Positions 1,653 through 20,356 of a stretch of 22,193 bases of DNA are shown in pieces (positions within the stretch are counted from its first letter, which is position 1; the number at the start of each line of letters is the position of its first letter). The position numbers and the translations under genes are program-made. This stretch comes from a candidate division WOR-3 bacterium (GTDB lineage: Bacteria > Hydrothermota > Tepidihabitantia > SM23-42 > JAOAFX01): assembly GCA_039802265.1 (NCBI GenBank), contig JBDRWI010000039.1, positions 1-22,193 of the forward strand. Reading direction: 5' to 3'. Under the pieces are notes generated by a model. It ran no database searches and had not been told where the DNA came from. It saw nothing but the letters and a program-made list of their open reading frames with translations.

Positions 1653-1680
1653 TTGACTTAAGGCATATTTTCCATATAAT
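1653..1680 (+). promoter_or_regulatory. sigma70-type promoter, probably producing a leaderless mRNA
   Basis: TTGACT (1653-1658), 16 nt, TATAAT (1675-1680); ATG at 1687 is 6 nt downstream with no SD. Confidence 0.8.
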
Positions 1681-1686
1681 TAACTT

Positions 1687-4293
1687 ATGAAGATAATTAT
1701 AGAGAAACTAAAACAAAATTTACATTCGGGTTGGGTTATTGCCAACCACATCCTTGTCTCCTTCCATGTTGCATTTATTTCATCCATTTTGTGCATTTCC
1801 AAAGATTTACAAGGGAAGGAAGTATTGGGATTTGTCTTTACAAGTGTTGATACAATAATCTCAGCAATCTTCTGGTTTATAAGCTTCCATACCGGGATTG
1901 CCATCCACGAGATGGGGCATTACCTAAGGGCAGTGAAACTCAATGCCCTGAATGAAAATATTTTACCCGCTGCCCAGAAAAGATACAAAAGCTCAGGCCT
2001 TAGTAAACTATTATGGTATATAGAAATGTTCATCAAAATTCCCTATGGAAAATTCACGGGAGTAAAGAAAGAAGGATTGACATATTATCCAGAAGCCCCA
2101 TTCAATCTAAGCGTTGCGGCCGCCGGTCCTGAAATCAGTGGTAATATGGCACTCGTGATATTGCCCGTCGCTGTGATTCTTCTGGCAATTGGACTTATTG
2201 GTGACCGCTTAATATTCACATATATAGGCAGATTATGCCTTGGTATTGGAACTGTGGGACTGCTTGACTTTCTCCTCGCTGACCCGGGTAAATATCGTGA
2301 ATTTAAAGAACGGGAAACAAAGGCGAAACAGAAGGCGGAAAAGATAGAAATATCAAGAACCGGCTGGTTAGAAAAAGCAAAGGCAGTAAAGCGAATGATG
2401 ATGGAAAAAAGAATTCAAACAATCCATCTAAAGGATGGCGAAATTGTGAGTGCACCATGGCAATTCAGAAATTGTGGTATGGGTGGCAGGCATACTGAAA
2501 AAGAATATCCGGAAAGTAATATCAGTATGCAGGAAATGATGTTTTTGCCATTATGTGCAAAGAATTATGAAGAGGCGCAGATGATCACCGTTGCCCTTCA
2601 GACCCGTCTAAAAGAGATAATAGAAAAGTCCGAAGGTGCTCGGGTGATGGGAATCGGCCTCGAAGGTGGTCTGGCACCTTATATTGCGAAAGAACCTGGG
2701 GATATTGTTCCTGAGCAGAGGCTCTGGCGGATGGCAATTCAGGCAATAAAGGATATCGGTTATCGTCCTGGTGAGGATATTGCCCTTGCATTCGACCCGG
2801 CTTTAAGCGAATTGAGTAATGCCTACCGAGAGGAATTCAATCAACCGGATGCCGTGGGCATGTATTATTTCTGGAGAAGCGAAGAAAAGGTAGTTATGTC
2901 GCGTGACCAATTAATTGAATTGTATAAAAAAGCAGTTGATGAACATCCAATTTTCTCACTTGAGGATGCCTTCGCCGAAGACGATTACGAAGGCTGGCGC
3001 CTATTAATGAAAGAATTAGGGAACAACTTATTTATTATCGGTGATGACATTGTAACCACGAAGGATTCCACGATCGAAAAATGCGCCGATGAGGGTTTGA
3101 TGAATGTCTCTCTCATAAAGGCAAATCAAATAGGTACCCTGTCCGAAACTTTAATCGCAATGCTTGTTGCCTTAGGCAAAGGTATGGATTTACTCGTCTC
3201 CCATCGTTCCAAATCGCCAAATGACGATATGGAGGCACAGATTGCCCTTTCGGCAAATACAATGGGATTAAAAGCCGGAGGCGGTGCTAATACTGAAAGG
3301 CTATTTAAGTATGGTTCAATTACAAAGATAATGAAAGACCTTGAAAAAAGCACCCAACTTGAATATGAGAAAAAAGATTTCAGCGCAATTAAAGAGTTAT
3401 TTAATAATTTGTTCATCACGGATGTCATTGCCTATGAGGAACCGACCAATGCCGGTATTCCCACCGTTGGAGTCGATATTTATGTGGGGATACCCGGCAG
3501 TGAGGAGTATCGCAAAATTCTTAAATTCAGCGGTTCTACTCCATTGGGAACATCGGCTGGAACTGGCGAGGCGATCCACCTTATTGACAGCACAATTGAA
3601 AAAACATCGGTGGTGGAAAAGTACCCTGAACTGTTTACACTCCAGCCCGATAAAACATATAAATTTAAAAAGGGCATAATAGAATCAGAATTAAAGGCGA
3701 AGAATGAACCGGAACTCCTCAAACTATGGTATCGAGTTCAAAGATATGAAGGAAAGGGCTGTCAGAATGCAGTGGAAAATGTTACAAATATCATTGCCAA
3801 AGAATTTATTGGTCAAAAAATTTCTGAATTTAAATCCATTGCCCAGATTGACCGTAAATTATTGATGCTGGAAAAAGGACTGGCAATCAGTCGTGGGAAA
3901 CTTGCTCCGAATGCCTCAATAGAAGAACAGATTGAAATAATGCAGAGGAAGGGCAATTTGGGTATGAATGCAATCCTATCTATGTCTCTTGCCCTGGGAA
4001 GAATGCTTGCTCACCTTCAGGGTAAGGATTTGTGGCAACTTCTCCGTGAAGAGATGAAGATTACTATCGCCAAGGTGCTTGAGGCAAACAATGCTATTGA
4101 ATTGCTGGAACCATTCGTGTCCAGAGATTTATTTAATAAACTAAAATCGGTTCCCAAGGGATACTGGCAACTCCTTGTTCAAATACCATTTTCAGAACTC
4201 GTTAAGTGTCTACAGGCATTAGAGAAAAAACTGAGAGCCGAGAATAAAAAACTATATCAAACATTGCGCAATCAAAATCCAATCTATTTTTGA
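1687..4293 (+). CDS. M50/site-2-protease-like membrane domain fused to a circularly permuted enolase-like protein
   Basis: aa 1-200: about 4 hydrophobic segments, HEMGH (74-78), VAAAGP, LADPG. aa ~256-553: enolase barrel motifs GGRH, QEMM, GLEGG, AFD, SLED, GDD, LIKANQIGTLSET, VSHRS, GLKAG, ERLFKY. aa ~576-786: enolase N-domain motifs GIPTV, PLGTSAGTGEA, RYEGKG..AVENV, IDRKL, KGNLGMNAILSMSLA. Confidence 0.9.
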   Translation: MKIIIEKLKQNLHSGWVIANHILVSFHVAFISSILCISKDLQGKEVLGFVFTSVDTIISAIFWFISFHTGIAIHEMGHYLRAVKLNALNENILPAAQKRYKSSGLSKLLWYIEMFIKIPYGKFTGVKKEGLTYYPEAPFNLSVAAAGPEISGNMALVILPVAVILLAIGLIGDRLIFTYIGRLCLGIGTVGLLDFLLADPGKYREFKERETKAKQKAEKIEISRTGWLEKAKAVKRMMMEKRIQTIHLKDGEIVSAPWQFRNCGMGGRHTEKEYPESNISMQEMMFLPLCAKNYEEAQMITVALQTRLKEIIEKSEGARVMGIGLEGGLAPYIAKEPGDIVPEQRLWRMAIQAIKDIGYRPGEDIALAFDPALSELSNAYREEFNQPDAVGMYYFWRSEEKVVMSRDQLIELYKKAVDEHPIFSLEDAFAEDDYEGWRLLMKELGNNLFIIGDDIVTTKDSTIEKCADEGLMNVSLIKANQIGTLSETLIAMLVALGKGMDLLVSHRSKSPNDDMEAQIALSANTMGLKAGGGANTERLFKYGSITKIMKDLEKSTQLEYEKKDFSAIKELFNNLFITDVIAYEEPTNAGIPTVGVDIYVGIPGSEEYRKILKFSGSTPLGTSAGTGEAIHLIDSTIEKTSVVEKYPELFTLQPDKTYKFKKGIIESELKAKNEPELLKLWYRVQRYEGKGCQNAVENVTNIIAKEFIGQKISEFKSIAQIDRKLLMLEKGLAISRGKLAPNASIEEQIEIMQRKGNLGMNAILSMSLALGRMLAHLQGKDLWQLLREEMKITIAKVLEANNAIELLEPFVSRDLFNKLKSVPKGYWQLLVQIPFSELVKCLQALEKKLRAENKKLYQTLRNQNPIYF

Positions 4294-4335: not shown

Positions 4336-6042
4336 ATGAAACAGAATTTTAAGACCTTCTGGGATATTGAGCGGGAAAAGACGCACAATATCTTCTTGTT
4401 ATTTCTCTTTCTCATCCTCCAATACTTTTTCACTTTTTTTGTGATTACCCTTTTCTTTAAACTTTTGCTTTTTTTTATGAAATCTCTTGGGAATTCCCAT
4501 TTGAGATTTCATATATTCGGCCCTGATACATTAATTGTCTTCAGTGTGGCAATTATTGCTGCATTGATTCACTGGTATTTTTCTAATAAAAATATGATAA
4601 ATAACATTCTGAAATTGCTTGGTGCAATGCCGCCTGATAAAAAGGATAAATACCATCATTTCTTTGAAAATGTGGTAGATGAAATAAGTGCTGCAGCTGG
4701 TGGTATAATAGTGGAGAAATATATTATACCAACTGGAGCAATGAATGCATTTGCTATTGCGGATTTAAAGGGCAGACGGGTTGTTGGTGTAACCGAAGGT
4801 TTGCTTTCGCGATTAAGCCGAGAGGAACTACAGGCGGTTGTCGCCCACGAAATGACACATATTGCCAGTGGTGATTGTGTGATGACAACTATTGCCAGTT
4901 CGCTCTTTGGCGTTTTCAGTGAAATTATAGAGCATTTTAATCAGATATTAACAAAGAGAAGGACAAAAGACGAGGAAGAAGGATTCATTTTTGATATCAG
5001 CAGTAGTGAAAAACAGGCATTAGCATTACAGTCATTGACATATCTACCCATTGCCCTTCCAGCTTTTATTATATTATTTTTTAGCAATATAATGGGACAA
5101 ATCCTCAATATGTTCATTTCGCGGGAGAGGGAATATCGGGCCGATGCTGGAGCAATAAAATATACAAGAAATCCACTTAGCCTTGCTACTGCCTTATACA
5201 AAATTGCCACACACTGGCGGGGCACAGCCGGGCATCTATCGCCAATATTTATCCTGAGTCCCCAGTTTAACCCGCTTGAAGACCGTGAGGATTTCTTTGC
5301 CAATCTATTCTCCACCCATCCACCAATTACAAGAAGACTGCAGATAATCCTGGACATTGCCCATGCCGACATCAATCAAATTTACGAACAAATCAGTAGC
5401 CGGAAAATTGGAAAAGAAGCCGAAGTTAAAAAAACTGAGCCAGTATTTTTTGTAGAATTTAACGATAAATGGTCTGGACCATATACAATTTTACAACTTC
5501 AGACCCTTGATGGGTTATCACCCCAAACCAGAATACGCCTGGCGGAAAGCGATGAGATAATATTAGCAGACTCAATTCCTGCCCTCAATCATTTCTTTAA
5601 GGTAAGGGATGAACCGATATGGAAAATCAGACGCCTCTGCCCTATTTGCCGTCAGTGGTTGATTGTCCAAGCGTATGAAGGACTTTATCTATGGCGGTGT
5701 GCATATTGCGATGGGATTTTAGTAGAAAGAGATAAACTTCCCCGTATATTTGTGCGGGGAGAAAAAGGTTTCAATGAGCAAATCCAGAAAACTGCAAAAC
5801 TTTTGCATACTGAAGCAAAGAAAAAGCAGAGGGTATTTAGGCTCCTCGTTGAGACAGCCCATCCGTATAAATGTCCAAAATGCGGTAACTCAATGATAAA
5901 AAGATTATATAGTTATGCTTACCACATTGAAATTGATGAATGTCCGAAATGTAATTTAATCTGGTTTGATAAGGATGAACTGGAAATTTTACAGTGTTTG
6001 ATTGAACTGGAAGAAAAAAATGAAAGAAGAAGAAATCATTAA
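4336..6042 (+). CDS. HtpX-like M48 zinc metalloprotease with C-terminal GYF-like segment and two zinc ribbons
   Basis: N-terminal TM helices, MNAFA, VTEGLL, ELQAVVAHEMTH (HExxH at 171-175), SREREYRADA, LATALYKI, LFSTHPP..RL; then WSGPY, CPIC..CAYC and CPKC..CPKC..IWFDKDEL (TFIIB-type zinc ribbon pattern). Confidence 0.88.
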   Translation: MKQNFKTFWDIEREKTHNIFLLFLFLILQYFFTFFVITLFFKLLLFFMKSLGNSHLRFHIFGPDTLIVFSVAIIAALIHWYFSNKNMINNILKLLGAMPPDKKDKYHHFFENVVDEISAAAGGIIVEKYIIPTGAMNAFAIADLKGRRVVGVTEGLLSRLSREELQAVVAHEMTHIASGDCVMTTIASSLFGVFSEIIEHFNQILTKRRTKDEEEGFIFDISSSEKQALALQSLTYLPIALPAFIILFFSNIMGQILNMFISREREYRADAGAIKYTRNPLSLATALYKIATHWRGTAGHLSPIFILSPQFNPLEDREDFFANLFSTHPPITRRLQIILDIAHADINQIYEQISSRKIGKEAEVKKTEPVFFVEFNDKWSGPYTILQLQTLDGLSPQTRIRLAESDEIILADSIPALNHFFKVRDEPIWKIRRLCPICRQWLIVQAYEGLYLWRCAYCDGILVERDKLPRIFVRGEKGFNEQIQKTAKLLHTEAKKKQRVFRLLVETAHPYKCPKCGNSMIKRLYSYAYHIEIDECPKCNLIWFDKDELEILQCLIELEEKNERRRNH

Positions 6043-10028: not shown

Positions 10029-11222
10029 TTATGCGCCGAATTTCTTGAGTTTTAAGGCATTGGCGAGTAAGAGCGGAAAAAAGTCCATTGCCTTCATTGT
10101 GCCGAGGGTACCTCGGGCACAGTTTCGTTCGTTAAATTCAAAACCATCGGGGAAGATGTAGCGGGAATTTAATAGTAATGGGCATGGATGCCAGGAGTGG
10201 GAGTGCAGGAGGGTCGGGGTGGAATGGTCACCGGTAATGCATAGCACATCGGGTTTCAGGTTCAGAATTCTGGGAAGGCAACGGTCAAACTCCTCTATCG
10301 CCCTTATCTTTGCCTCAATATCTCCATCTTCGCCTGCCTTATCCGTTGCCTTGTAATGGAGATAAAAAAAGTCAAAGTTATTGTAGTTCTCTTCTAATGT
10401 TGTAACCTCATCATCTATTGAGTCACCGGTTTTTAAAATCTCCATCCCCACGATTCGTGCCAATCCGCGATACATTGGATAACTTGCGATCGCACCACAG
10501 TTCAGCCCGTATTTCTGATTCATATTCACAAGATTCGGTAGCCGTGAATAGCCTCGCATAAGTATGTAATTTGCCTTTTTTTCATCTTTTAATATTTCAG
10601 CACTTCTCGAGATAAAACTGTTTACTATTGTAGCACTTCGTTTTGCAGAAGGTATCTTTGCTCGGACCAAAACCGGTGGTAAATTGTCTTTCTGGGGGTC
10701 AGCATCGGTGATTTCCGGTGAGAGACTGGCACCCTTAAATATTACAACAAATCGATGTTCCTTGGCTGGTCTTATTACTACCGGAATACCGTTGATCTCT
10801 TCCATCCCTTTTTGTAGCTTACCACAGAGCCGTGTGCATTCCTCGGTAGAAATCCTGCCTGCCCGACGGTCAATAATAATATTGTTCTTGATTGTGGCAA
10901 AGTTTGCCCTTACCGCCAGGTCCCTTTCATCTATCTCAATGCCTATTCCCAGTGCTTCAAGGACTCCCCGGCCAATTTGATTTTCTATTGGGTCATAACC
11001 AAAAAGGGCGAGGTGTGCCGGACCGCTGCCGGGAGTTACTCCCGGAGCGATCGGGATTAAAAGTCCGAGGCTACTTTTCTGGCTTAATTTATCAAGATTC
11101 GGTTTATGAGCCAGTTCCAGCGCACTTTTTTCAGGATTTGGTAAATCACCCAATCCATCAAGCACAATAAGTAAAATTTTATTATCGTTTTTGTTTAAGA
11201 TATCAGAGAGAATCTTTTCCAT
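10029..11222 (-). CDS. apgM: 2,3-bisphosphoglycerate-independent phosphoglycerate mutase, ApgM type
   Basis: [75 protein letters not shown] 11222 preferred because TTG 11228 overlaps the -10 element. Confidence 0.92.
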
Positions 11223-11227
11223 TGCCA

Positions 11228-11256
11228 AATATATCCAAAATTTTGGTTGGTGTCAA
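11228..11256 (-). promoter_or_regulatory. internal promoter for apgM-purH, probably leaderless
   Basis: TTGACA (11256-11251), 17 nt, TATATT (11233-11228); 5 nt to ATG 11222. Confidence 0.65.
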
Positions 11257-12052: not shown

Positions 12053-13075
12053 TTATAGTTGTGCCAGACCCAATTGGGAATAGTATTTCTTATAGAAATT
12101 TCGGTATTCGCCGGTCTGCGTATTTCTTAGCCATTTTTGATTCTTCTTATACCATTCAATCGTCTTTTTTATGCCGGTTTCAAATGATGTTGTTGGGTGC
12201 CATCCGAGTTGACGTCTGATTTTATTCAGAGAGAGCGAATATCTTCGGTCGTGACCCGGGCGGTCTTTTACAAAAGTAATCAAATCTTCACTTTTATTTA
12301 AAATCTTTAATATTCTCTTTACAACATACAGGTTCGTGAGTTCATTCTCGCCTCCAATATTATAAATCTCGCCGATTTTACCTTCGTGAAAGACCAGGTC
12401 AATCGCCTGACAGTTGTCTTCAACATAAAGCCAGTCGCGAATATTGAGTCCATCTCCGTACACCGGAACCTTCTGATTATTCAGGGCATTAAGGATGGTC
12501 AGGGGTATGAGTTTTTCTGGGAACTGATATGGACCGTAATTATTAGAAGAGCGAGTAATCAATATGGGTAATCCATGAGTCTTGTAATATGAAATTACCA
12601 GTGCATCGGCTGCTGCCTTGCTTGCAGCATAAGGGCTGGATGGGTCAAGCGGGTCATCCTCACGAAATCTTCCAACCAGAATTGAACCATACACCTCATC
12701 CGTTGAGATCTGTAAAAATTTTTTTACCTTAAAACGCAACGCAAGGTTCAATAAAACACCTACTCCCAAGAAGTTCGTTTTTATAAAGGGTGAAGGAGAT
12801 AGTATGCTACGGTCAACATGGGTCTCGGCTGCAAAATTTATCACTGCATCAGGCTGAAATTTTTCAAAAATTTTTCTCATTGCCTGGGCATTACTAATAT
12901 CAGCGCGGAAAAAGTGGTAATTCTTCTTCCTCTCCAGTCCCTTTAGATTCTCTAAATTTCCGGCATATGTGAGTTTATCAACATTCAATATTTTGTAATA
13001 AGGATGTCGCGAATTAAAATACCTTATAAAATTAGAACCAATAAACCCACAACCACCAGTTATGAGAATCCTCAT
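12053..13075 (-). CDS. rfbB: dTDP-glucose 4,6-dehydratase
   Basis: TGGCGFIGSNF, DKLTYAGN, FAAETHVDRSI, STDEVYG, PYAASKA, NNYGPYQFPEKLIP, DRPGHDRRY. Confidence 0.97.
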   Translation of the reverse strand: MRILITGGCGFIGSNFIRYFNSRHPYYKILNVDKLTYAGNLENLKGLERKKNYHFFRADISNAQAMRKIFEKFQPDAVINFAAETHVDRSILSPSPFIKTNFLGVGVLLNLALRFKVKKFLQISTDEVYGSILVGRFREDDPLDPSSPYAASKAAADALVISYYKTHGLPILITRSSNNYGPYQFPEKLIPLTILNALNNQKVPVYGDGLNIRDWLYVEDNCQAIDLVFHEGKIGEIYNIGGENELTNLYVVKRILKILNKSEDLITFVKDRPGHDRRYSLSLNKIRRQLGWHPTTSFETGIKKTIEWYKKNQKWLRNTQTGEYRNFYKKYYSQLGLAQL

Positions 13076-13096
13076 AATTGTCTCGGATTTATCAAA

Positions 13097-13585
13097 TTAT
13101 CCATCTTTCCTTGACCAGTCGTAGGGAATATCTGAGTTATGTGGTGGCTTGCGATACTCATCAGGTTTTTTATAATTGTAGCATTCAGTCACAATATTCA
13201 AAATAATACATTCATCTTCACTGATACATTTAAAACCATGCCAGACGAGTTTTGGAATATGGATTAAGATATGATTGTGGTCGCCGACAAAGAATTCGTT
13301 GATAATGCCACGGGTTCGGCTTTGCCTGCGGTCATCGTAGAGCACAATCTTTGCCATACCTTTAATCACTGTCATATTGTCATTCTGCAATTTGTGGCAA
13401 TGCCAGGCCTTCACCACACCGAAATAGCCGGTCGTTATATACACCTGTCCGAATTTTTCAAATATTTTGTCATCACTTCTTAATATTTCCATAAGCCGGC
13501 CGCGCTCATCGGGTAATAATCTGAGATTCTTTACGGCAACCCCAGCAATCAATTTTTTACCTTTAAATCCAGGAATTTCTATCAT
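13097..13585 (-). CDS. rfbC: dTDP-4-dehydrorhamnose 3,5-epimerase family cupin
   Basis: DERG, VKAWHCH, LYDDR..S.T, IP..VWHGF; lies between rfbA and rfbB; ATGA overlap with rfbA. Confidence 0.85.
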   Translation of the reverse strand: MIEIPGFKGKKLIAGVAVKNLRLLPDERGRLMEILRSDDKIFEKFGQVYITTGYFGVVKAWHCHKLQNDNMTVIKGMAKIVLYDDRRQSRTRGIINEFFVGDHNHILIHIPKLVWHGFKCISEDECIILNIVTECYNYKKPDEYRKPPHNSDIPYDWSRKDG

Positions 13586-14649
13586 CCTATGAGTTCAACA
13601 TAACTTTGGTCACCCAGAAAGAAACGATGAACACGGGGTGCGGTATCAGTCTGAGTAATTACTACATTTTTTCCAATGATTGAGCGGTCAATCCTTTTAT
13701 TTAAATTTTTAATCTGTGCTCCCTCCATTACGACACTGCATTCAATTTCAGCATTTTGAATTAAAACATTATCACCGATAGAGGAAAATGAGCCAACAAA
13801 GGAATTTATAATCGTGGAATTTCTTCCGATTACCGCCGGTCCCCTGATTGTACTTTTTTCAACTTTTGTATTTTCCCCGATTCTAACCCTTCCATTTACG
13901 TTGGATTCTATCAGGATTCCTTTATTTGATGACTCAATATCCTCAAGCACAAGTAAATTCGCCTCAATGATGTCATCAGGTTTTCCAGTGTCTTTCCACC
14001 ATCCTTTTACCAGATGCGACTCCACCCGGTAGTTATTGTCCAATAACCATTGGATGGCATCGGTTATTTCTAATTCGTTGCGCCAGGATGGCTTAATAAA
14101 ATCAACCGCCCTGAAGATCTCTTTATCAAAAAGATAAACCCCTACCAGCGCTAAATCTGACGGCGGCTGTTTGGGTTTCTCAATCAATCTCTTCACCTTG
14201 CCTTTTTCATCAACCACTGCGACACCGAATTCCTGAGGATTACAGACCCGGGTAAGCAGAATCAGGGCATTTGGCTTTAATGACTCAAACTTTGCCACAA
14301 AGTCTTTTACTCCTTCTTTTAAAATATTGTCACCGAGATACATAATAAAAGACTCATCCTTTAAATAACTCCTTGCAATCTTTATGGCATGAGCAAGTCC
14401 CAAAGGGGCCTCCTGCTGGATATATTCAATTTTTATTCCGAATTGCGCTCCATTACCTACTACCGTCTGAATCTCTTTAGCCGTATCACCAACAACAATG
14501 CCGATCTCTGTTATCCCTGCCTCAACCAGTGCCTCAATTCCATAAAAGATAATTGGTTTATTAGCAATTGGAATAAGTTGCTTAGCGCTGGTATAGGTAA
14601 GGGGACGCAGCCTTGTTCCAAAGCCACCCGAAAGAATCAATCCTTTCAT
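13582..14649 (-). CDS. rfbA: glucose-1-phosphate thymidylyltransferase, long form
   Basis: LSGGFGTRLRPLT, KQLIPIANKP, PLGLAHA, YLGDN, EKP, PSWRNELEITDA, WWKDTG, C-terminal hexapeptide-like beta-helix. Confidence 0.95.
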   Translation of the reverse strand: MKGLILSGGFGTRLRPLTYTSAKQLIPIANKPIIFYGIEALVEAGITEIGIVVGDTAKEIQTVVGNGAQFGIKIEYIQQEAPLGLAHAIKIARSYLKDESFIMYLGDNILKEGVKDFVAKFESLKPNALILLTRVCNPQEFGVAVVDEKGKVKRLIEKPKQPPSDLALVGVYLFDKEIFRAVDFIKPSWRNELEITDAIQWLLDNNYRVESHLVKGWWKDTGKPDDIIEANLLVLEDIESSNKGILIESNVNGRVRIGENTKVEKSTIRGPAVIGRNSTIINSFVGSFSSIGDNVLIQNAEIECSVVMEGAQIKNLNKRIDRSIIGKNVVITQTDTAPRVHRFFLGDQSYVELIG

Positions 14650-14801: not shown

Positions 14802-14928
14802 CTATTTTATTATCACGGCCTTTTTCTTGGCGGTTTTGTGCTCACCATCATCAGCATAAAAATCAAAGACATAGATATAAACACCAGGAGCCAGCCTCTT
14901 ACCCGCATCATTCTTCCCATCCCAGGGA
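14802..14928. repeat. 127-bp exact direct repeat, second copy at 22067-22193 (cut by the window edge)
   Basis: Base-by-base identity from the stop codon (CTATTTTATTATCACGG...) to ...CCCATCCCAGGGA; identity ends exactly at the stop codon. Confidence 0.97.
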
Positions 14929-17900
14929 TAATAATGAATTCCAAAATCATAATGACGATTGGTTATCAACCTCCGCACCAACTCACCCGCACGAGTATAA
15001 ACCTCTAAGTTAACACGACCCGACTTCGGCAAACTGAAAATAAACTGAGTTCTGTCCCTGAACGGATTACGAAAATTATGCACCCCAAAAGGCGGCACCA
15101 GAATCGTCCTTAGTACCACACTATCCCTCACCTCCTCCCTCATACTACACTCACCATAAACAACCAAATCAAAATAAATCAAACTATCCAGTAAACCAGA
15201 AAAACTAAAAGTATCCGGCGCACTCACCCGCACCACAAAATCCTTGGAAACATCAGGATTAACCACACCCAGATCAACCAAACCATCCTGATTATTATCC
15301 CTTAATAAACTACCACCCTTATCCAACAACTCAACCTGCCAACCACTAACTACATCACTACTCTTGATATTCACAACATCCGAAAGATTCGCCCGCAAAA
15401 CCACCCACAACGGATAACTAACACCCCCACCAACCTCAACCCGACTACCCTGATCCGGCTCAACCAATAATCCCCAGATACCACCCAAACTCCCAGTCAT
15501 TAACACCACATCATCAAATACCACAGTATTATTGCTGGAAATCGCCCGCACAAAGACCGTATCAACCACACCAGGATTCACCAGCGGCACCTTCACCCGC
15601 ACCACCAAACTCTCACAACCACCAAAACCACTGACTAACCCCAAATCCACCAGACCATCACCATCCGTATCCATAAGCAAATTACCACCCAAATCACGCA
15701 GGGTATAACTAAATCCACCACCAATAATACTCAAATCAATCACATCACCAGCATTACCTAAATTATTCACCCATAACAAATAATCAATTGAATCACCACA
15801 ACCCGCTGAATCACTACAATCAGGCTCAAACAAAACCTGGGCAACCGTCCCAACCATCAAAACACAAACCGACGAATCCCGCACCGTAGAATCCCGACCC
15901 GAATAACCATAAACCAATATCGTATCCCTGGTACCCGAAGGCATATTCGCCGGAACCAATACCCTTAAATTAAAATCTACCTCCCCACCCAAAGGACCAA
16001 CACCAGACAAATCCACCAACCCATTACCATTATGGTCAACTAATTGATTACCCAATGAATCCAATAATTGATAACTATAACCAAACTGATCAATATACCG
16101 CAAATCAATGGTATCCGTAAAATTCTGATTGTTGCGACAGGATAAAACAAAATTCACCCAATCACCTGGAAGACCCGTAGCCTGCTGGTCAGGAAAGATA
16201 ATTATTGAACCCATCCCCTCAATAATTGTAATAATCGTTGCATTGTCAGTGACTGACGGATTGAGACCGGAACGACCGGTTAAAACCAATGTATCAGCCT
16301 CACCAGCAAGGGCAGTATCCGGCGAATATACCACCAATCTAAATCTAACCGAATCCGAACTACTAACCCAGAGGTCAACCAAACCATTGTTATTATGGTC
16401 TGTGAGCGGCGAACCCGTTGAATCTAAGAGCACAACACCCCAGGGCTTATTGTGATTGTAGTACAAATCTACCGTATCACGATTCGTCCCTTGATTATAA
16501 ACCCACAAATCATAACCTATCGGCACACCCGCAACTGTTGAACCAACCCGATCCGGCTCAACCAAAATTGCTGCTATATGTCGGATTGTCGTCGTAATAT
16601 ACACAGTATCAACAAGAAGGGGATTGATATTAGAATTACCAATTAACCTCAAAGAATCAACCTCACCACCCTGGGCACTTGAAGGCGGTGTAACCGATAG
16701 AACAATCGGCACTGTATCATTGATATTTATTATTACATCCGGAATTAAATTGTTATTATGGTCAATCAAAGGAATTGTACCCGTGGAATCAAATAACCCA
16801 ACCTGCCAGTTGGTATCATGCTGATAAACTAAATCAACCGTATCAAGACCAATCCCAATATTTATCACCCGGATAGAATAATCAACCCGCACATTGGGCA
16901 AGGTAGAATCCGCCTGATTCGGCTCAAGGATTAATCTAACCGCTGAACCATAACCAATACGCACCTCAAACAAATATGGTAAATACGAAGGATTGGTATA
17001 TCTCAACCTTGCCCGATACTGTAAATACCTTGAATTTAGACTATCCGGAATATCGTCATTCTTACCCAAAGAATCCCAATCGCTCCAGGAGGTATCAGGG
17101 TTTGGTGTATTACCACTACGCACAAAAAAGGCAATGCTTGAACCCGGGGGCAGACTATCATCCCAATCCACCACTCCCCAGGCAACCACCTCACCCGCAT
17201 CAAAGACCGAAGAGATATAATCCTCATAGTATTTACGATTATAGACATTGCCAATCTCCCGGAACATACTACAATCATCGCGTGCATTCGGCAATTGAAC
17301 CATTATACTATTATAATTGGGTCCATTCAAGATATAGCTCGGCTCCGGTGGATAAGAATAATTATTGACAAGAATATCAAGGTAACCATTGTAATCAAAA
17401 TCTGCAATCAATCCGCCACTTGCATCAATTGGAAACCCTATCGCCGTCTTGTTACTCTCAGAATAGCCTGAGGCACTACCCCAGTATATTAGTGGGTTCT
17501 CTTCAACACCATATCCCTTTAAGAAAAGAATATCCAGATAACCATCATAGTTTAAATCCGCAACCGCATTACCACCAAAACAACCACCCGGTAATAATGT
17601 CTGCCATAGACTAAAACCATTCGGCCCACCTGTATAGATATACGCCGTAACTCCATTAGACCAGGTAGAAATGACAATATCCAGATATTGGTCATTATTT
17701 AAGTCAGCAACTGACGCTCCATTAGGAGAATCGCCTGCACAGGGTAAAACCTCCCGATTATTCTCCGAGAATCCACTATCACTTCCCCAGTATAGATAAC
17801 AAGAATTGTTAAGGCCATTTAACTCCAGCAAATCCAACCAGCCATCTCTATCAAAGTCTGCCGATTCGATGTTTCTTCTGTTGTTATAAGAAGGGAAGAT

Positions 17901-18476
17901 ATCCACATTATTAGAGATACCCATTGAATCCCCATATAAAACTGCACCCTGATTGGATGTTCCATATCTATTTACCGCCAAGTCCAGATAACCGTCTTTA
18001 TTGAAGTCAGCGAGATAACAGGTCTCGTTAATTACATTGCCTAAATAAATATCAATGTAATTATTGGGATTCGGTCCTGATGAAGCGCCCCGGAACATCC
18101 TTACTTTACTCGATGACTGTTGTTGGGCAACGAATAAATCAGGGTATCCATCATGGTTTATGTCTCCGGCATTACAACCGATTGAACCAATGGTGCCTGT
18201 TGGATAGTATGTAACATTCACTGGATTATAGCCACTTGCACTGCCCCAATAGACATAAGAATAGTCTGACTGTTCATTGGTTATTACAATATCCAGATAG
18301 CCGTCGCAATTTAAATCCCATCTTGAAGCAAATTCAATAGTTCCGCTGTCTCGCTGTGATGCATAAATATTACACTCATAAATTCCATCCTTGAAATCTT
18401 CCTGAGTAGTTTCAAGCCATTGATTCTCGGCGAAGCCAATAGTCGTGAATAAGAAATAATATAATAATTTTTTCAC
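14802..18476 (-). CDS. large secreted FG-GAP/VCBS repeat protein with five Ig-like repeats and a C-terminal FlgD-Ig/T9SS-like domain
   Basis: Signal peptide MKKLLYYFLFTTIGFA; seven D(L/F/I)(N/D)xDGYxD-type repeats with YWGS; five ~120-aa repeats starting xxEP(D/N) or xxFPD; C-terminal NPF..T...F.LP...V.L.VY...G.LVR.L.....G.....WDGKNDAG....GVY. GTG start overlaps the upstream TGA. Confidence 0.9.
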   Translation of the reverse strand: MKKLLYYFLFTTIGFAENQWLETTQEDFKDGIYECNIYASQRDSGTIEFASRWDLNCDGYLDIVITNEQSDYSYVYWGSASGYNPVNVTYYPTGTIGSIGCNAGDINHDGYPDLFVAQQQSSSKVRMFRGASSGPNPNNYIDIYLGNVINETCYLADFNKDGYLDLAVNRYGTSNQGAVLYGDSMGISNNVDIFPSYNNRRNIESADFDRDGWLDLLELNGLNNSCYLYWGSDSGFSENNREVLPCAGDSPNGASVADLNNDQYLDIVISTWSNGVTAYIYTGGPNGFSLWQTLLPGGCFGGNAVADLNYDGYLDILFLKGYGVEENPLIYWGSASGYSESNKTAIGFPIDASGGLIADFDYNGYLDILVNNYSYPPEPSYILNGPNYNSIMVQLPNARDDCSMFREIGNVYNRKYYEDYISSVFDAGEVVAWGVVDWDDSLPPGSSIAFFVRSGNTPNPDTSWSDWDSLGKNDDIPDSLNSRYLQYRARLRYTNPSYLPYLFEVRIGYGSAVRLILEPNQADSTLPNVRVDYSIRVINIGIGLDTVDLVYQHDTNWQVGLFDSTGTIPLIDHNNNLIPDVIININDTVPIVLSVTPPSSAQGGEVDSLRLIGNSNINPLLVDTVYITTTIRHIAAILVEPDRVGSTVAGVPIGYDLWVYNQGTNRDTVDLYYNHNKPWGVVLLDSTGSPLTDHNNNGLVDLWVSSSDSVRFRLVVYSPDTALAGEADTLVLTGRSGLNPSVTDNATIITIIEGMGSIIIFPDQQATGLPGDWVNFVLSCRNNQNFTDTIDLRYIDQFGYSYQLLDSLGNQLVDHNGNGLVDLSGVGPLGGEVDFNLRVLVPANMPSGTRDTILVYGYSGRDSTVRDSSVCVLMVGTVAQVLFEPDCSDSAGCGDSIDYLLWVNNLGNAGDVIDLSIIGGGFSYTLRDLGGNLLMDTDGDGLVDLGLVSGFGGCESLVVRVKVPLVNPGVVDTVFVRAISSNNTVVFDDVVLMTGSLGGIWGLLVEPDQGSRVEVGGGVSYPLWVVLRANLSDVVNIKSSDVVSGWQVELLDKGGSLLRDNNQDGLVDLGVVNPDVSKDFVVRVSAPDTFSFSGLLDSLIYFDLVVYGECSMREEVRDSVVLRTILVPPFGVHNFRNPFRDRTQFIFSLPKSGRVNLEVYTRAGELVRRLITNRHYDFGIHYYPWDGKNDAGKRLAPGVYIYVFDFYADDGEHKTAKKKAVIIK

Positions 18477-20356
18477 TTCAGCCTTATTATTTTTTTACTG
18501 ATATTCCAATTTTCTTGGTTTATTTTTTGAAGGTTTAAAATCACAAAGTAAATACCTGATTCAACGCTACGATTGGAATTGGTATCTCCATCCCACCAAA
18601 GGCAATAATGACCTTGTTTATAAAATCTATTTTTGATAATATCTTTTATCAATCTTCCTGAACAATCATAAATCTGTAAGTTGACTATTCCTCTATCAGG
18701 GATTATAAAAGAAATCTGCGTCTTACTGCTATATTGAGGGTTAACATTGAGGCCCAACGAATTGAAAAATTTTGAGTGTAGATTTTCATTTACACCAGGT
18801 GCCTGATGATAGAAAACCTTTATACTATCAAACGAAAAAACCGAAGTTCTCTTATAATCTGTTGTGAAAATGCACCGGTACTGAAGATATCTTTTTCCAG
18901 CAAGCAGCGTATCGGTTGCCCCATTGGATAATAAAACCCACCTTCCCCAAGCAGTCGTATCAAGTGCACCCCTTACCCACACCGAGCACGTAACTCCAAT
19001 AGGAAAATTTCCCCACCATTTCACTGAATCAACAACTATTGTATTACCAGCATCAAAAACACTTGATAAATACCTCTCTTTATTTGACCTATCCCAGATA
19101 TTCCCTAAGTCTTCCCACACCGCATCATCACAATTGTCCGGGAAGGTGAATTTTCTTGTGGAGTCAAATCCAATTAAGCTATTCCAATAGAGATATGTTG
19201 GACCGTAAATGCCCCCTGCGAGTAAATCCTTTAATCCATCATTATTCCAGTCGGCAACATTGATTACCATCGGAGCATCCTCAACCGGTAATTGCACCCT
19301 TGATTGATATTGGGGACCCCACCAGATTGAACATGCACCATCATAGCGATGGCTTAATGCTATGTCAATTGCACCATCATTGTTAACATCCTCACAAGAT
19401 ATATCACCTTTACCTGAACCCGGTAAGAAAGTGCGATTACTGACTGAATATCCGACAGATGACCCCCAATATATGCAGGATGAATCGCTGTTTTGAGCAA
19501 ATACTACATCAAGAAAACCATCCATATTCAGGTCTGCAATTGAATGGTCATAGTTAGGAGAAGCCGGTAAATCCTGATAGGAGACAAAATTAGCCCCCCA
19601 GAAGATTCTAATAGTACCATTCTGATTATGGGAAACTGAAATATCAAGTAGACCATCATTATTCAAATCAGCAATGTTTATACCCGAAGCTATACCTGCG
19701 GGACAATTCAGGACATAGATGGGCTCAGTGTTTGCAAAAGGAGGTGGTCCAGGATAGATATAAGTGATTGTTCCTCCACTCACCAATATATCCAGATAAC
19801 CATCATTATTGATATCACATGGCTGTAAATCCTGTGTATAGGGAGGACCATACTTTACCGAATCATCAGGTGTTAATGAATAACCGGTTGCCGAACCATA
19901 AAATATAGACCCCCGCCCCGGGTCATAAGATGCAATCAATATATCCTGATAACCATCGCAATTTAAGTCAGCAAGCGAGATACCCTGCGGATTTAAAGAG
20001 AATCCTGTAAGGTTTGTATAATTTGATGTATTAAATCCATTAGCGGAATTCCAATATATCCTTGCTGTGCCTTGTTGAAACCAATCAAGAACAACATCTA
20101 AGTACCCATCATCATTTAAATCCCAGTCTCGACCAATTATTCGCACCCCCCCTGAGAAAGGTGAATAGACATAACCACCAATCTCCCATCTTCTAATTTC
20201 CGCCGAGTTCCATTGGGTAGCAGTATCACCACCTAAATAGTAATACTCAAAGCCATCAACAAAATCTGAATGGTTCTTTTCAACCCAGACACCTTCAGCA
20301 AAAAGAATGAAAAACGGCAGGCACATCAAATACGAAAGATGGAGATAACCCACCAT
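18473..20356 (-). CDS. secreted FG-GAP/VCBS repeat protein with a C-terminal FlgD-Ig/T9SS-like domain
   Basis: Hydrophobic N-terminus; seven D(L/I/V/W)NxDGxxD repeats; SSVFDAG and RYLQYR shared with the downstream paralog; IYDCSGRLIK..WDG...SGIYF tail; SD AGGGGGAG. Confidence 0.9.
   Translation of the reverse strand: MVGYLHLSYLMCLPFFILFAEGVWVEKNHSDFVDGFEYYYLGGDTATQWNSAEIRRWEIGGYVYSPFSGGVRIIGRDWDLNDDGYLDVVLDWFQQGTARIYWNSANGFNTSNYTNLTGFSLNPQGISLADLNCDGYQDILIASYDPGRGSIFYGSATGYSLTPDDSVKYGPPYTQDLQPCDINNDGYLDILVSGGTITYIYPGPPPFANTEPIYVLNCPAGIASGINIADLNNDGLLDISVSHNQNGTIRIFWGANFVSYQDLPASPNYDHSIADLNMDGFLDVVFAQNSDSSCIYWGSSVGYSVSNRTFLPGSGKGDISCEDVNNDGAIDIALSHRYDGACSIWWGPQYQSRVQLPVEDAPMVINVADWNNDGLKDLLAGGIYGPTYLYWNSLIGFDSTRKFTFPDNCDDAVWEDLGNIWDRSNKERYLSSVFDAGNTIVVDSVKWWGNFPIGVTCSVWVRGALDTTAWGRWVLLSNGATDTLLAGKRYLQYRCIFTTDYKRTSVFSFDSIKVFYHQAPGVNENLHSKFFNSLGLNVNPQYSSKTQISFIIPDRGIVNLQIYDCSGRLIKDIIKNRFYKQGHYCLWWDGDTNSNRSVESGIYFVILNLQKINQENWNISKKIIRLK

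Follow-up and report, generated by a model that had tools for sequence, protein, structure and literature searches.

A circularly permuted enolase joined to a membrane domain resembling site-2 proteases in a candidate division WOR-3 bacterium

Introduction

By its sequence, a gene of a candidate division WOR-3 bacterium encodes an enolase that is circularly permuted and whose active site is complete, carried in a single chain behind four transmembrane (TM) helices that resemble the core of a site-2 protease (S2P; family M50). The gene, called the fusion below, lies at positions 1687..4293 of the forward (+) strand and encodes 868 amino acids (aa). The window is the whole stretch of DNA analysed, namely the 22,193-nt contig JBDRWI010000039.1 of assembly GCA_039802265.1, and its genome (G000) is a metagenome-assembled genome (MAG) of 110 contigs that is 89% complete. 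Enolase is near-universal and among the most uniform enzymes in biology. The protein is built from two known families, enolase and M50/S2P. A naturally permuted version that is integral to the membrane, occurs widely and can apparently stand in for the normal enolase gene (eno) is surprising. No description of this protein was found in the literature searched, whose coverage left out subscription papers and took in PMC2575518 in part, and the supplements of two Omnitrophota preprints (10.1101/2023.11.21.568195 and 10.64898/2026.06.07.730766) could list it.

We read the fusion as a two-function inner-membrane protein, which would unite a permuted enolase, the housekeeping enolase role and a zinc-dependent protease. 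Taken jointly, these three stand slightly better than an even chance. Should the zinc domain prove to be an active protease, it would define a new subgroup of S2Ps whose soluble domain is an enzyme, and might tie carbon flux directly to intramembrane proteolysis.

Domain Order of the Fusion Protein

The permutation is seen directly in the order of the enolase domains. In a Pfam scan of the window protein, Enolase_C matched aa 262-558 (E 2.3e-51; 175.3 bits against a cut-off of 21.5), ahead of Enolase_N, whose best stretch was aa 684-729 (E 1.4e-11; 45.2 bits, the cut-off being 35). A profile-profile alignment with 80 canonical enolases agrees, placing aa ~257-555 on canonical residues 144-418 and aa ~575-787 on canonical residues 3-136, and so the barrel stands ahead of the cap. 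By this mapping the enolase is cut at the natural cap-barrel linker, with its end rejoined to its start through a variable 20-aa linker. The preliminary description of this DNA, made from the letters alone, had proposed a barrel before the cap, as well as a hydrophobic aa 1-200 bearing HEMGH, AAAGP and D199 in the same open reading frame (ORF), and the protein is as described on both counts. The window protein scores 225.4 bits in TIGR01060, below the cut-off of 300; because the fusion falls under this cut-off, pathway reconstructions can wrongly report a lower-glycolysis gap in these lineages.

From its N-terminus, the chain is laid out as an extra TM helix, an M50-like core, a linker, the enolase barrel, a new linker, the enolase cap and a helical tail. 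The extra TM helix (aa 16-34; 1732..1788, +) was delimited by hydropathy, a model helix and the conservation of N20, H21, S25, H27, S32 and S33. The M50/S2P-like core (aa 54-202; 1846..2292, +) contains H74-E75-x-x-H78, an edge-strand-like IPYGKFTG (aa 118-125), N140, AAAGP, D194 and D199. Hydropathy places four hydrophobic segments within aa 17-193, and after them comes a basic helical linker (aa 203-255; 2293..2451, +), predicted to be cytoplasmic, with two model helices and 16 lysine or arginine residues within aa 200-250. The enolase TIM barrel (aa 256-555; 2452..3351, +) is assigned by Enolase_C, structure superposition and a residue map. The new variable linker (aa 556-575; 3352..3411, +), which leads from the old C-terminus to the old N-terminus, has the lowest column conservation in the protein (0.32). 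It is followed by the enolase cap (aa 576-790; 3412..4056, +), assigned by Enolase_N and an hhalign probability of 99.4, with lid serine S623 and two family-specific insertions, and by a fast-evolving helical tail in the model (aa 791-868; 4057..4290, +), which is absent from canonical enolase.

The Enolase Half Keeps a Complete Active Site

On the profile of the 80 canonical enolases, residues H269, Q282, E283, E326, D370, E426, D453, K478, H506, R507, S508, K529 and S623 fall on invariant canonical positions. These 13 catalytic residues are also invariant in the closest homologues, in an alignment of 114 rows. Present among them are the catalytic base K478, the acid E326, the Mg ligands D370, E426 and D453, the phosphate-binding HRS of H506, R507 and S508, the loop histidine H269 and the lid serine S623. 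The roles assigned to them rest on established enolase chemistry. They were also taken from the portions available of PMC4356359 and PMC8495383. K478 as the general base and E75 as the HExxH glutamate, the two residues that the preliminary description had singled out for mutation, are supported.

The AlphaFold2 model of the whole chain has a mean pLDDT of 87, and the loop that bears the lid serine (aa 623-625) is modelled at low confidence. Its barrel superposes on solved enolases with Z 32-34 and a root-mean-square deviation (rmsd) of 1.8-2.5 A over ~280 residues, the match to 9no4_I having Z 34.2 and rmsd 2.1 A over 283 residues, and this is the enolase TIM-barrel fold. As to whether the cap would dock on the barrel in the native manner, the whole chain has a pTM of 0.84, and the structure aligners, sequential by design, matched the barrel alone.

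The Sole Enolase of a WOR-3 Family

The membrane-tethered enolase, which the preliminary description had offered as one of two options, is well supported. By its pattern of occurrence the fusion is likely a working enolase: none of the 15 family genomes (15 of 15) has another enolase, and at one syntenic locus relatives carry the fusion, normal eno or both. A profile search of G000 returned one Enolase_C and one Enolase_N match, both being the fusion gene, and tblastn with the 80 canonical enolases gave the fusion locus as its sole match; the preliminary description had raised the question of a normal eno in the same genome, and none was found in G000. Each of the 15 family genomes, 10 of them at least 95% complete, contains a single Enolase_C match, and no such match scores as a canonical gene does. 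Fourteen of these matches lie in the fusion range (E ~1e-51 to 1e-54), compared with 1e-108 or better for intact canonical genes; the remaining one is partial and comes from a 67%-complete genome. Since just 4 of 189 genomes of the phylum have no match at all, genome incompleteness does not explain the missing normal eno.

Reciprocal loss, the clearest sign of a working enolase, can be followed at one locus with the same flanks, which holds fusion and eno in L042 and L049, the fusion only in L044 and eno only in L255. Within genus g7, both genes stand in tandem in five genomes, with the fusion only in one and eno only in two. At L048:8664-10001, eno is reduced to its last 56 codons, which start 23 nt downstream of the fusion, lie between two short repeats and are followed by an IS200 transposase and an ftsB-like gene; with these flanking repeats, an assembly error there is possible.

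At the cytoplasmic face, the protein would probably interconvert 2-phosphoglycerate (2-PG) and phosphoenolpyruvate (PEP), as the housekeeping enolase of a family that lost normal eno. Together with phosphoglycerate mutase, PGK, GAPDH, PPDK and enzyme I of the phosphotransferase system, it would complete lower glycolysis/gluconeogenesis. Across the family genomes, PGK is present in 13 of 15, phosphoglycerate mutase in 14 of 15 (in the window at 10029-11228) and a PEP-utiliser barrel in all 15. In G000 the PPDK is full and GAPDH lies at the edge of a contig; neither PGK nor pyruvate kinase was found there. The missing PGK is read as an assembly gap, because of that contig edge and the presence of PGK in 13 of the 15 genomes.

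Reality and Spread of the Fusion

A protein search gave 961 matches among 7,995 scored candidates, and statements on homologues rest on the best 120 of them. These are nearly all full-length, with 48-82% identity, and the closest named among the matches listed are WOR-3 bacteria. In a scan of species-level genomes, 287 stretches were found to encode a relative, and the best 79 loci were analysed; their titles include Acidobacteriota, Planctomycetota, Omnitrophota, Chloroflexota, Spirochaetota and one Promethearchaeota archaeon. The preliminary description had looked to homologues of the same architecture in other genomes, and they exist in many phyla: the order membrane domain, barrel, cap is the same in the best 120 homologues and in 76 of the 76 loci with a called ORF among the best 79. 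Single contigs of the hot-spring runs X1 and X4 span both domain junctions. Among the variants listed for hot-spring run contigs, there is no indel within the ORF, and five substitutions each fall at a third codon position. No RNA data set was listed as holding the locus, and two runs labelled metatranscriptomic are probably DNA and are silent on expression. The division of G000 into 110 contigs could suggest an artefact of assembly or gene calling, but the shared domain order and the independent contigs leave that explanation practically no probability, and the 287 matching stretches across many phyla rule out a misassembly.

Searched against 1.84 billion representatives, a profile of the membrane domain returned 144 matches. 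Among the true matches long enough to judge, the membrane domain is always followed by the permuted barrel. Four weak repeat-like matches of this profile did not hold up. The copy titled Promethearchaeota (L065:5845-8598) faces a normal eno. In the tree it falls on a long branch within the WOR-3 clade grouping (support 95), and it may represent a transfer or mis-binning.

Accessory Copies, Long Forms and Divergent Members

Outside the family, the fusion is not primarily a replacement and is accessory in most carriers. Among the 79 carrier genomes, a count that overlaps the family and genus counts and includes kin that are not independent, 65 also have a canonical enolase (in two of these a stop or frameshift splits it) and 1 has part of one; the other 13 lack it. 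A quick, midpoint-rooted tree, from which a motif filter removed 13 of the 80 canonical sequences and with them most tandem copies of WOR-3, sets 92 permuted barrels on one side of a long branch (SH-aLRT 100), and three tandem eno genes fall in three places. A recent origin by duplication of the adjacent eno is unsupported, since the permuted barrels are one old group and the tandem eno genes are scattered. As these barrels are an old group and 65 of 79 carriers keep normal eno, the fusion should have a second, selected job. Normal eno is missing in 12 of 33 short forms versus 1 of 40 C-terminally extended forms, with 6 loci unclassed. It lies within the flank in 8 of 79 loci, directly downstream on the same strand in seven of these.

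In 30 of 79 loci the fusion has a complete long form of 1,900-2,430 aa (for example, L070:5983-12063), which adds an unassigned helical domain of ~600 aa and, without the pyruvate barrel, an ATP-grasp of PPDK type and a His swivel. Both Pfam domains, ATP-grasp and His swivel, were found in 10 of 10 long forms scanned. The helical domain had no usable match in the ESM Atlas. None of the family genomes has it (0 of 15); among 31 genomes with mostly short forms it occurs in 2, each with a split long form. A separate dikinase-like partner in the window's family was sought and not found (0 of 15 genomes). The long form at L100 has an HD-domain match. Some Omnitrophota homologues carry the module inside proteins of 1,400-3,200 aa with sugar and central-metabolism domains, and the module recurs in multi-enzyme polyproteins with PPDK-, GDH-, UDPGP- and GPI-like domains.

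Divergent members were also found. P0146 and P0182, which both look truncated, keep HExxH and D199 intact with a dead enolase site, and are candidate pure sensor-proteases. In the tandem-module proteins P0155, P0157 and P0179, both the enolase site (dead) and the zinc motif (damaged) of the first module are defective. At L095:3154-8820 the whole module is doubled in one chain, and both barrels are intact and nearly identical.

The Membrane Domain Compared with Site-2 Proteases

The S2P/M50 ancestry of the membrane domain is supported. H74-E75-x-x-H78 stands near the end of TM helix 54-84, by hydropathy and the model, and H74, E75, H78, AAAGP and D199 are invariant or nearly so in the alignment of 114 rows. 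Among 123 modules, three of them rows that are fragments of split alignments, H74, H78 and D199 are each retained in 115 and E75 in 111, with 4 gaps each. When five family members are compared (synonymous change, pS, ~0.6), the membrane domain and the barrel are under similar constraint, with a nonsynonymous change (pN) of 0.046 and 0.036, respectively; the cap has 0.116 and the tail 0.30.

Against a 29-sequence RseP profile, hhalign gave E 3.4e-5 and a probability of 72. The HExxH is aligned, IPYGKFTG lies opposite IPFGGYVK and AAGP opposite LAGP, and to this extent the S2P-like module of the preliminary description stands. A small-M50 profile gave a probability of 7 only. In E. coli RseP, according to the portions available of bioRxiv 10.1101/2022.01.31.478169, zinc is bound by H22, H26 and D402, N394 clamps the substrate and strand 4 (G67-V70) is the substrate-binding edge strand. 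The D194-x4-D199-P-G of the fusion occupies the topological place of the LDG motif, at the end of the third core helix, and we infer that D199 would be a zinc ligand, positioned where one is expected.

Peptidase_M50 is matched at E <= 0.1 in 51 of 68 members (best E 6.1e-7), and a precomputed PF02163 match exists in 4 of the best 120 homologues. In a fold search whose matches were weak, RseP (7w6z) ranked first and MjS2P (3b4r) fourth of 48,161 chains. The ESM Atlas linked aa 1-215 to M50-named clusters at 0.90-0.91, which is a lead only, and the membrane-domain profile gave nothing meaningful against PDB sequences. The membrane histidines H21, H27 and H68 and the second aspartate D194 are conserved outside the S2P motif set, and for these and N20 of the extra helix (aa 16-34) there was no counterpart among the S2P motifs checked. 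The extra TM helix is a candidate gate or plug of the putative zinc site. A complex prediction of aa 8-215 against aa 226-868 with zinc scored 0.00, which gives no verdict and is evidence neither way.

Proposed Function and Alternative Explanations

In the proposed mechanism, the M50-like half would bind zinc via H74, H78 and D199, and E75 would cut membrane-embedded peptides with the use of the IPYGKFxG edge strand; read from its motifs, this step is reasonably probable. Most carriers would keep the fusion beside normal eno because of this proteolytic second job. A further and speculative step, which we regard as doubtful, is that closure of the enolase loops on 2-PG/Mg would be relayed by the D199-helix linker and tune the protease. 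This linker enters the barrel ~15 residues ahead of the H269 loop. In the part available of PMC4356359, 2-PG together with Mg closes the enolase loops, the H269 loop among them, and they are open with PEP or with no ligand. The preliminary description had both 2-PG and PEP closing the enolase; the closure on 2-PG holds, and PEP is not expected to close the loops.

If gating were the rule, one chain would be both a glycolytic enzyme and the switch of an intramembrane protease, whose zinc site 2-PG/Mg occupancy would open or shut. We judge this rather unlikely. The permutation would then set the third zinc ligand and the linker beside the H269 loop, with the His-rich extra TM helix perhaps moved from the cleft. 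The soluble ligand-binding domain of SpoIVFB sits at the same place (PMC9042235 and PMC10202637, each in part), and this analogy was counted for gating. If true, many uncultured lineages would have an intramembrane proteolysis that senses directly whether flux is glycolytic or gluconeogenic, and the protein would carry all enolase flux as well in the window's family. In favour of the reading as a signalling protease are the strongly constrained HExxH domain and the normal eno kept in 65 of 79 carriers; against it stand a third ligand outside the canonical LDG motif and a search that found no substrate, conserved partner or sign of coupling.

Several observations weigh against the combined reading of the fusion as enolase and protease. 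The third-ligand segment of M50 proteases (N-x7-LDG / NxxPxxxxDG) was unaligned in all three M50 profiles tried with hhalign, and the window protein itself has a weak Peptidase_M50 match (aa 65-242; E 0.028; 14.2 bits), below the cut-off of 27.2. The fold matches to 7w6z (Z 7.5, rmsd 4.4, 118 aligned) and 3b4r (Z 6.7, rmsd 5.1, 117 aligned) are tied with unrelated helical membrane proteins, and Foldseek returned zero matches for the membrane-domain model at E <= 0.001; the fold support for the S2P-like module of the preliminary description is weak. The divergent members P0160, P0250 and P0258 keep the enolase site and have lost the HExxH glutamate, so the membrane domain can persist without catalysis, and the two halves can lose catalysis separately. 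No substrate or partner gene conserved across phyla was found in the flanks of the best 79 loci. Every genome is an incomplete MAG, and related genomes do not count as independent. On the enolase side, about 34 canonical-invariant positions are altered, 21 in the barrel and 13 in the cap (three pairs beyond the cap removed), among them the inter-subunit salt-bridge arginine, the DSR motif and the G-E-T after HRS, and these changes could lower activity or shift rate or specificity. Canonical R11, D15-S16-R17, E373, R398, N406 and E412 are all replaced; apart from R11, these are presumably homodimer-interface positions. R11:E425 is an inter-subunit salt bridge in Plasmodium enolase (PMC5494301, in part). 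Because the R11 equivalent is Y583 and neighbouring invariant residues are altered, the usual enolase dimer is probably remodelled, perhaps covered by the insertions and the tail.

The non-canonical third-ligand motif, the members without the catalytic glutamate, the recurrence of the module in multi-enzyme polyproteins and the lack of a conserved substrate gene would all suit an active enolase on a non-proteolytic anchor. Here the M50-like domain would bind a structural metal and tether the enolase, together with the dikinase-like unit in long forms, as a metabolic scaffold. We consider this unlikely, as E75 is retained in 111 of 119 ungapped modules and the membrane domain is constrained like the catalytic barrel, beyond a tether's need. 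A zinc site with non-peptide chemistry beside an active enolase, such as the hydrolysis of lipid-linked or phosphorylated small molecules in a PEP-linked pathway with the long-form ATP-grasp/phospho-His unit, is very unlikely: it could account for H21, H27, H68 and D194 outside the S2P motif set, and for the PPDK-like ATP-grasp and His domain without a pyruvate barrel in 30 of 79 loci, but the peptide-binding edge strand is retained, and by the near absence of the dikinase-linked helical domain from family and short-form genomes this organism is without that partner.

The enolase half might instead serve as a sensor only, binding 2-PG, PEP or another substrate without glycolytic flux, in which case the family would make 2-PG otherwise or do without. 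Its accessory status in 65 of 79 carriers, the invariant family-specific changes beside the active site and the pseudo-enolase versions with intact HExxH (P0146, P0182) are in its favour. This has a slight chance at most, given that 15 of 15 genomes, with mutase, PGK and PPDK retained, have no further enolase, and given the reciprocal loss at one locus and the full catalytic set.

Promoter and Neighbouring Genes

A predicted sigma70-type promoter with 11 of 12 consensus matches and a 16-nt spacer lies at 1653..1680 (+) and ends 6 nt before the ATG of the fusion. Eight of the 10 WOR-3-clade loci printed have a similarly placed -35/-10 pair upstream (L037-L040, L042, L044, L046 and L049), and in L043 and L045 the pair lies further upstream. 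Across G000, -10-like hexamers stand 5-6 nt before the start at 53 and 46 of 1033 ORFs, versus mostly 7-23 at other offsets, which suggests that leaderless mRNAs are common in this organism. The fusion transcript is probably leaderless, and the placement of its promoter fits constitutive, leaderless expression. A perfect divergent sigma70 consensus lies at 1497-1470 (-), before the gene of a zinc-ribbon membrane protein.

The gene 42 bp downstream of the fusion (4336-6042, +) encodes an HtpX-like M48 membrane protease with two C-terminal zinc ribbons. It adjoins the fusion in five other family loci, and endonuclease III and a flippase come next in four of them. As a partner it is rejected as a weak candidate, since in relatives it lies further along the same block, including one without the fusion, and it is no neighbour in other phyla. 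Elsewhere in the window, a Big_5 lipoprotein-like gene lies at 2-442, and two tandem FG-GAP-repeat proteins with C-termini like FlgD-Ig and the type IX secretion system (T9SS) are encoded at 14802-20356 (-). Three genes at 12053-14649 (-) resemble what we take to be dTDP-rhamnose synthesis genes (rmlB, rmlC and rmlA-like). Contigs of runs X6 and X7 have a 236-nt insertion at window 8176/8177, and X4 has loose ends at the same place.

Comparison with Known Systems

With the site-2 proteases of family M50 (E. coli RseP, Kangiella RseP 7W6Z and M. jannaschii S2P 3B4R), the window protein shares an HExxH in a TM helix, the same predicted topology, the edge-strand motif (RseP L66-V70), an AGP opening the next TM helix and an invariant aspartate ending the third core helix. 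It differs in that N-x7-LDG is replaced by D194-x4-D199-P-G, in having no PDZ or CBS domain, and in its extra conserved His-rich N-terminal TM helix and cytoplasmic C-terminal enolase. Among Group III S2Ps, B. subtilis SpoIVFB is said, in one cited title, to depend on ATP, and reportedly, in another title, a rise in ATP is not needed for cleavage. Like the window protein, SpoIVFB, with its C-terminal CBS, has a membrane protease followed on its C-terminal side by a linker and a soluble domain that binds ligands (PMC9042235 and PMC10202637, in the parts available); in the window protein, the soluble domain is instead an intact metabolic enzyme, known here without substrate or inhibitor proteins.

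Some Omnitrophota homologues embed the same module in long chains, which recalls the multi-enzyme giant proteins of Omnitrophota (bioRxiv 10.1101/2023.11.21.568195; 10.64898/2026.06.07.730766), whereas the window protein is its stand-alone 868-aa form; the available portions of these two preprints mention neither M50 nor a permuted enolase. Canonical enolase (EC 4.2.1.11; PF03952 and PF00113; TIGR01060; for example, B. subtilis 4A3R) has the same barrel fold, cap, catalytic and Mg-binding residues and lid serine, with a barrel identity of ~30-34%. It is a soluble chain of ~430 aa with the cap first, without the new 20-aa linker, the two cap insertions and the 80-aa tail, whereas the window protein is a membrane-integral chain of 868 aa with four TM helices and the barrel first.

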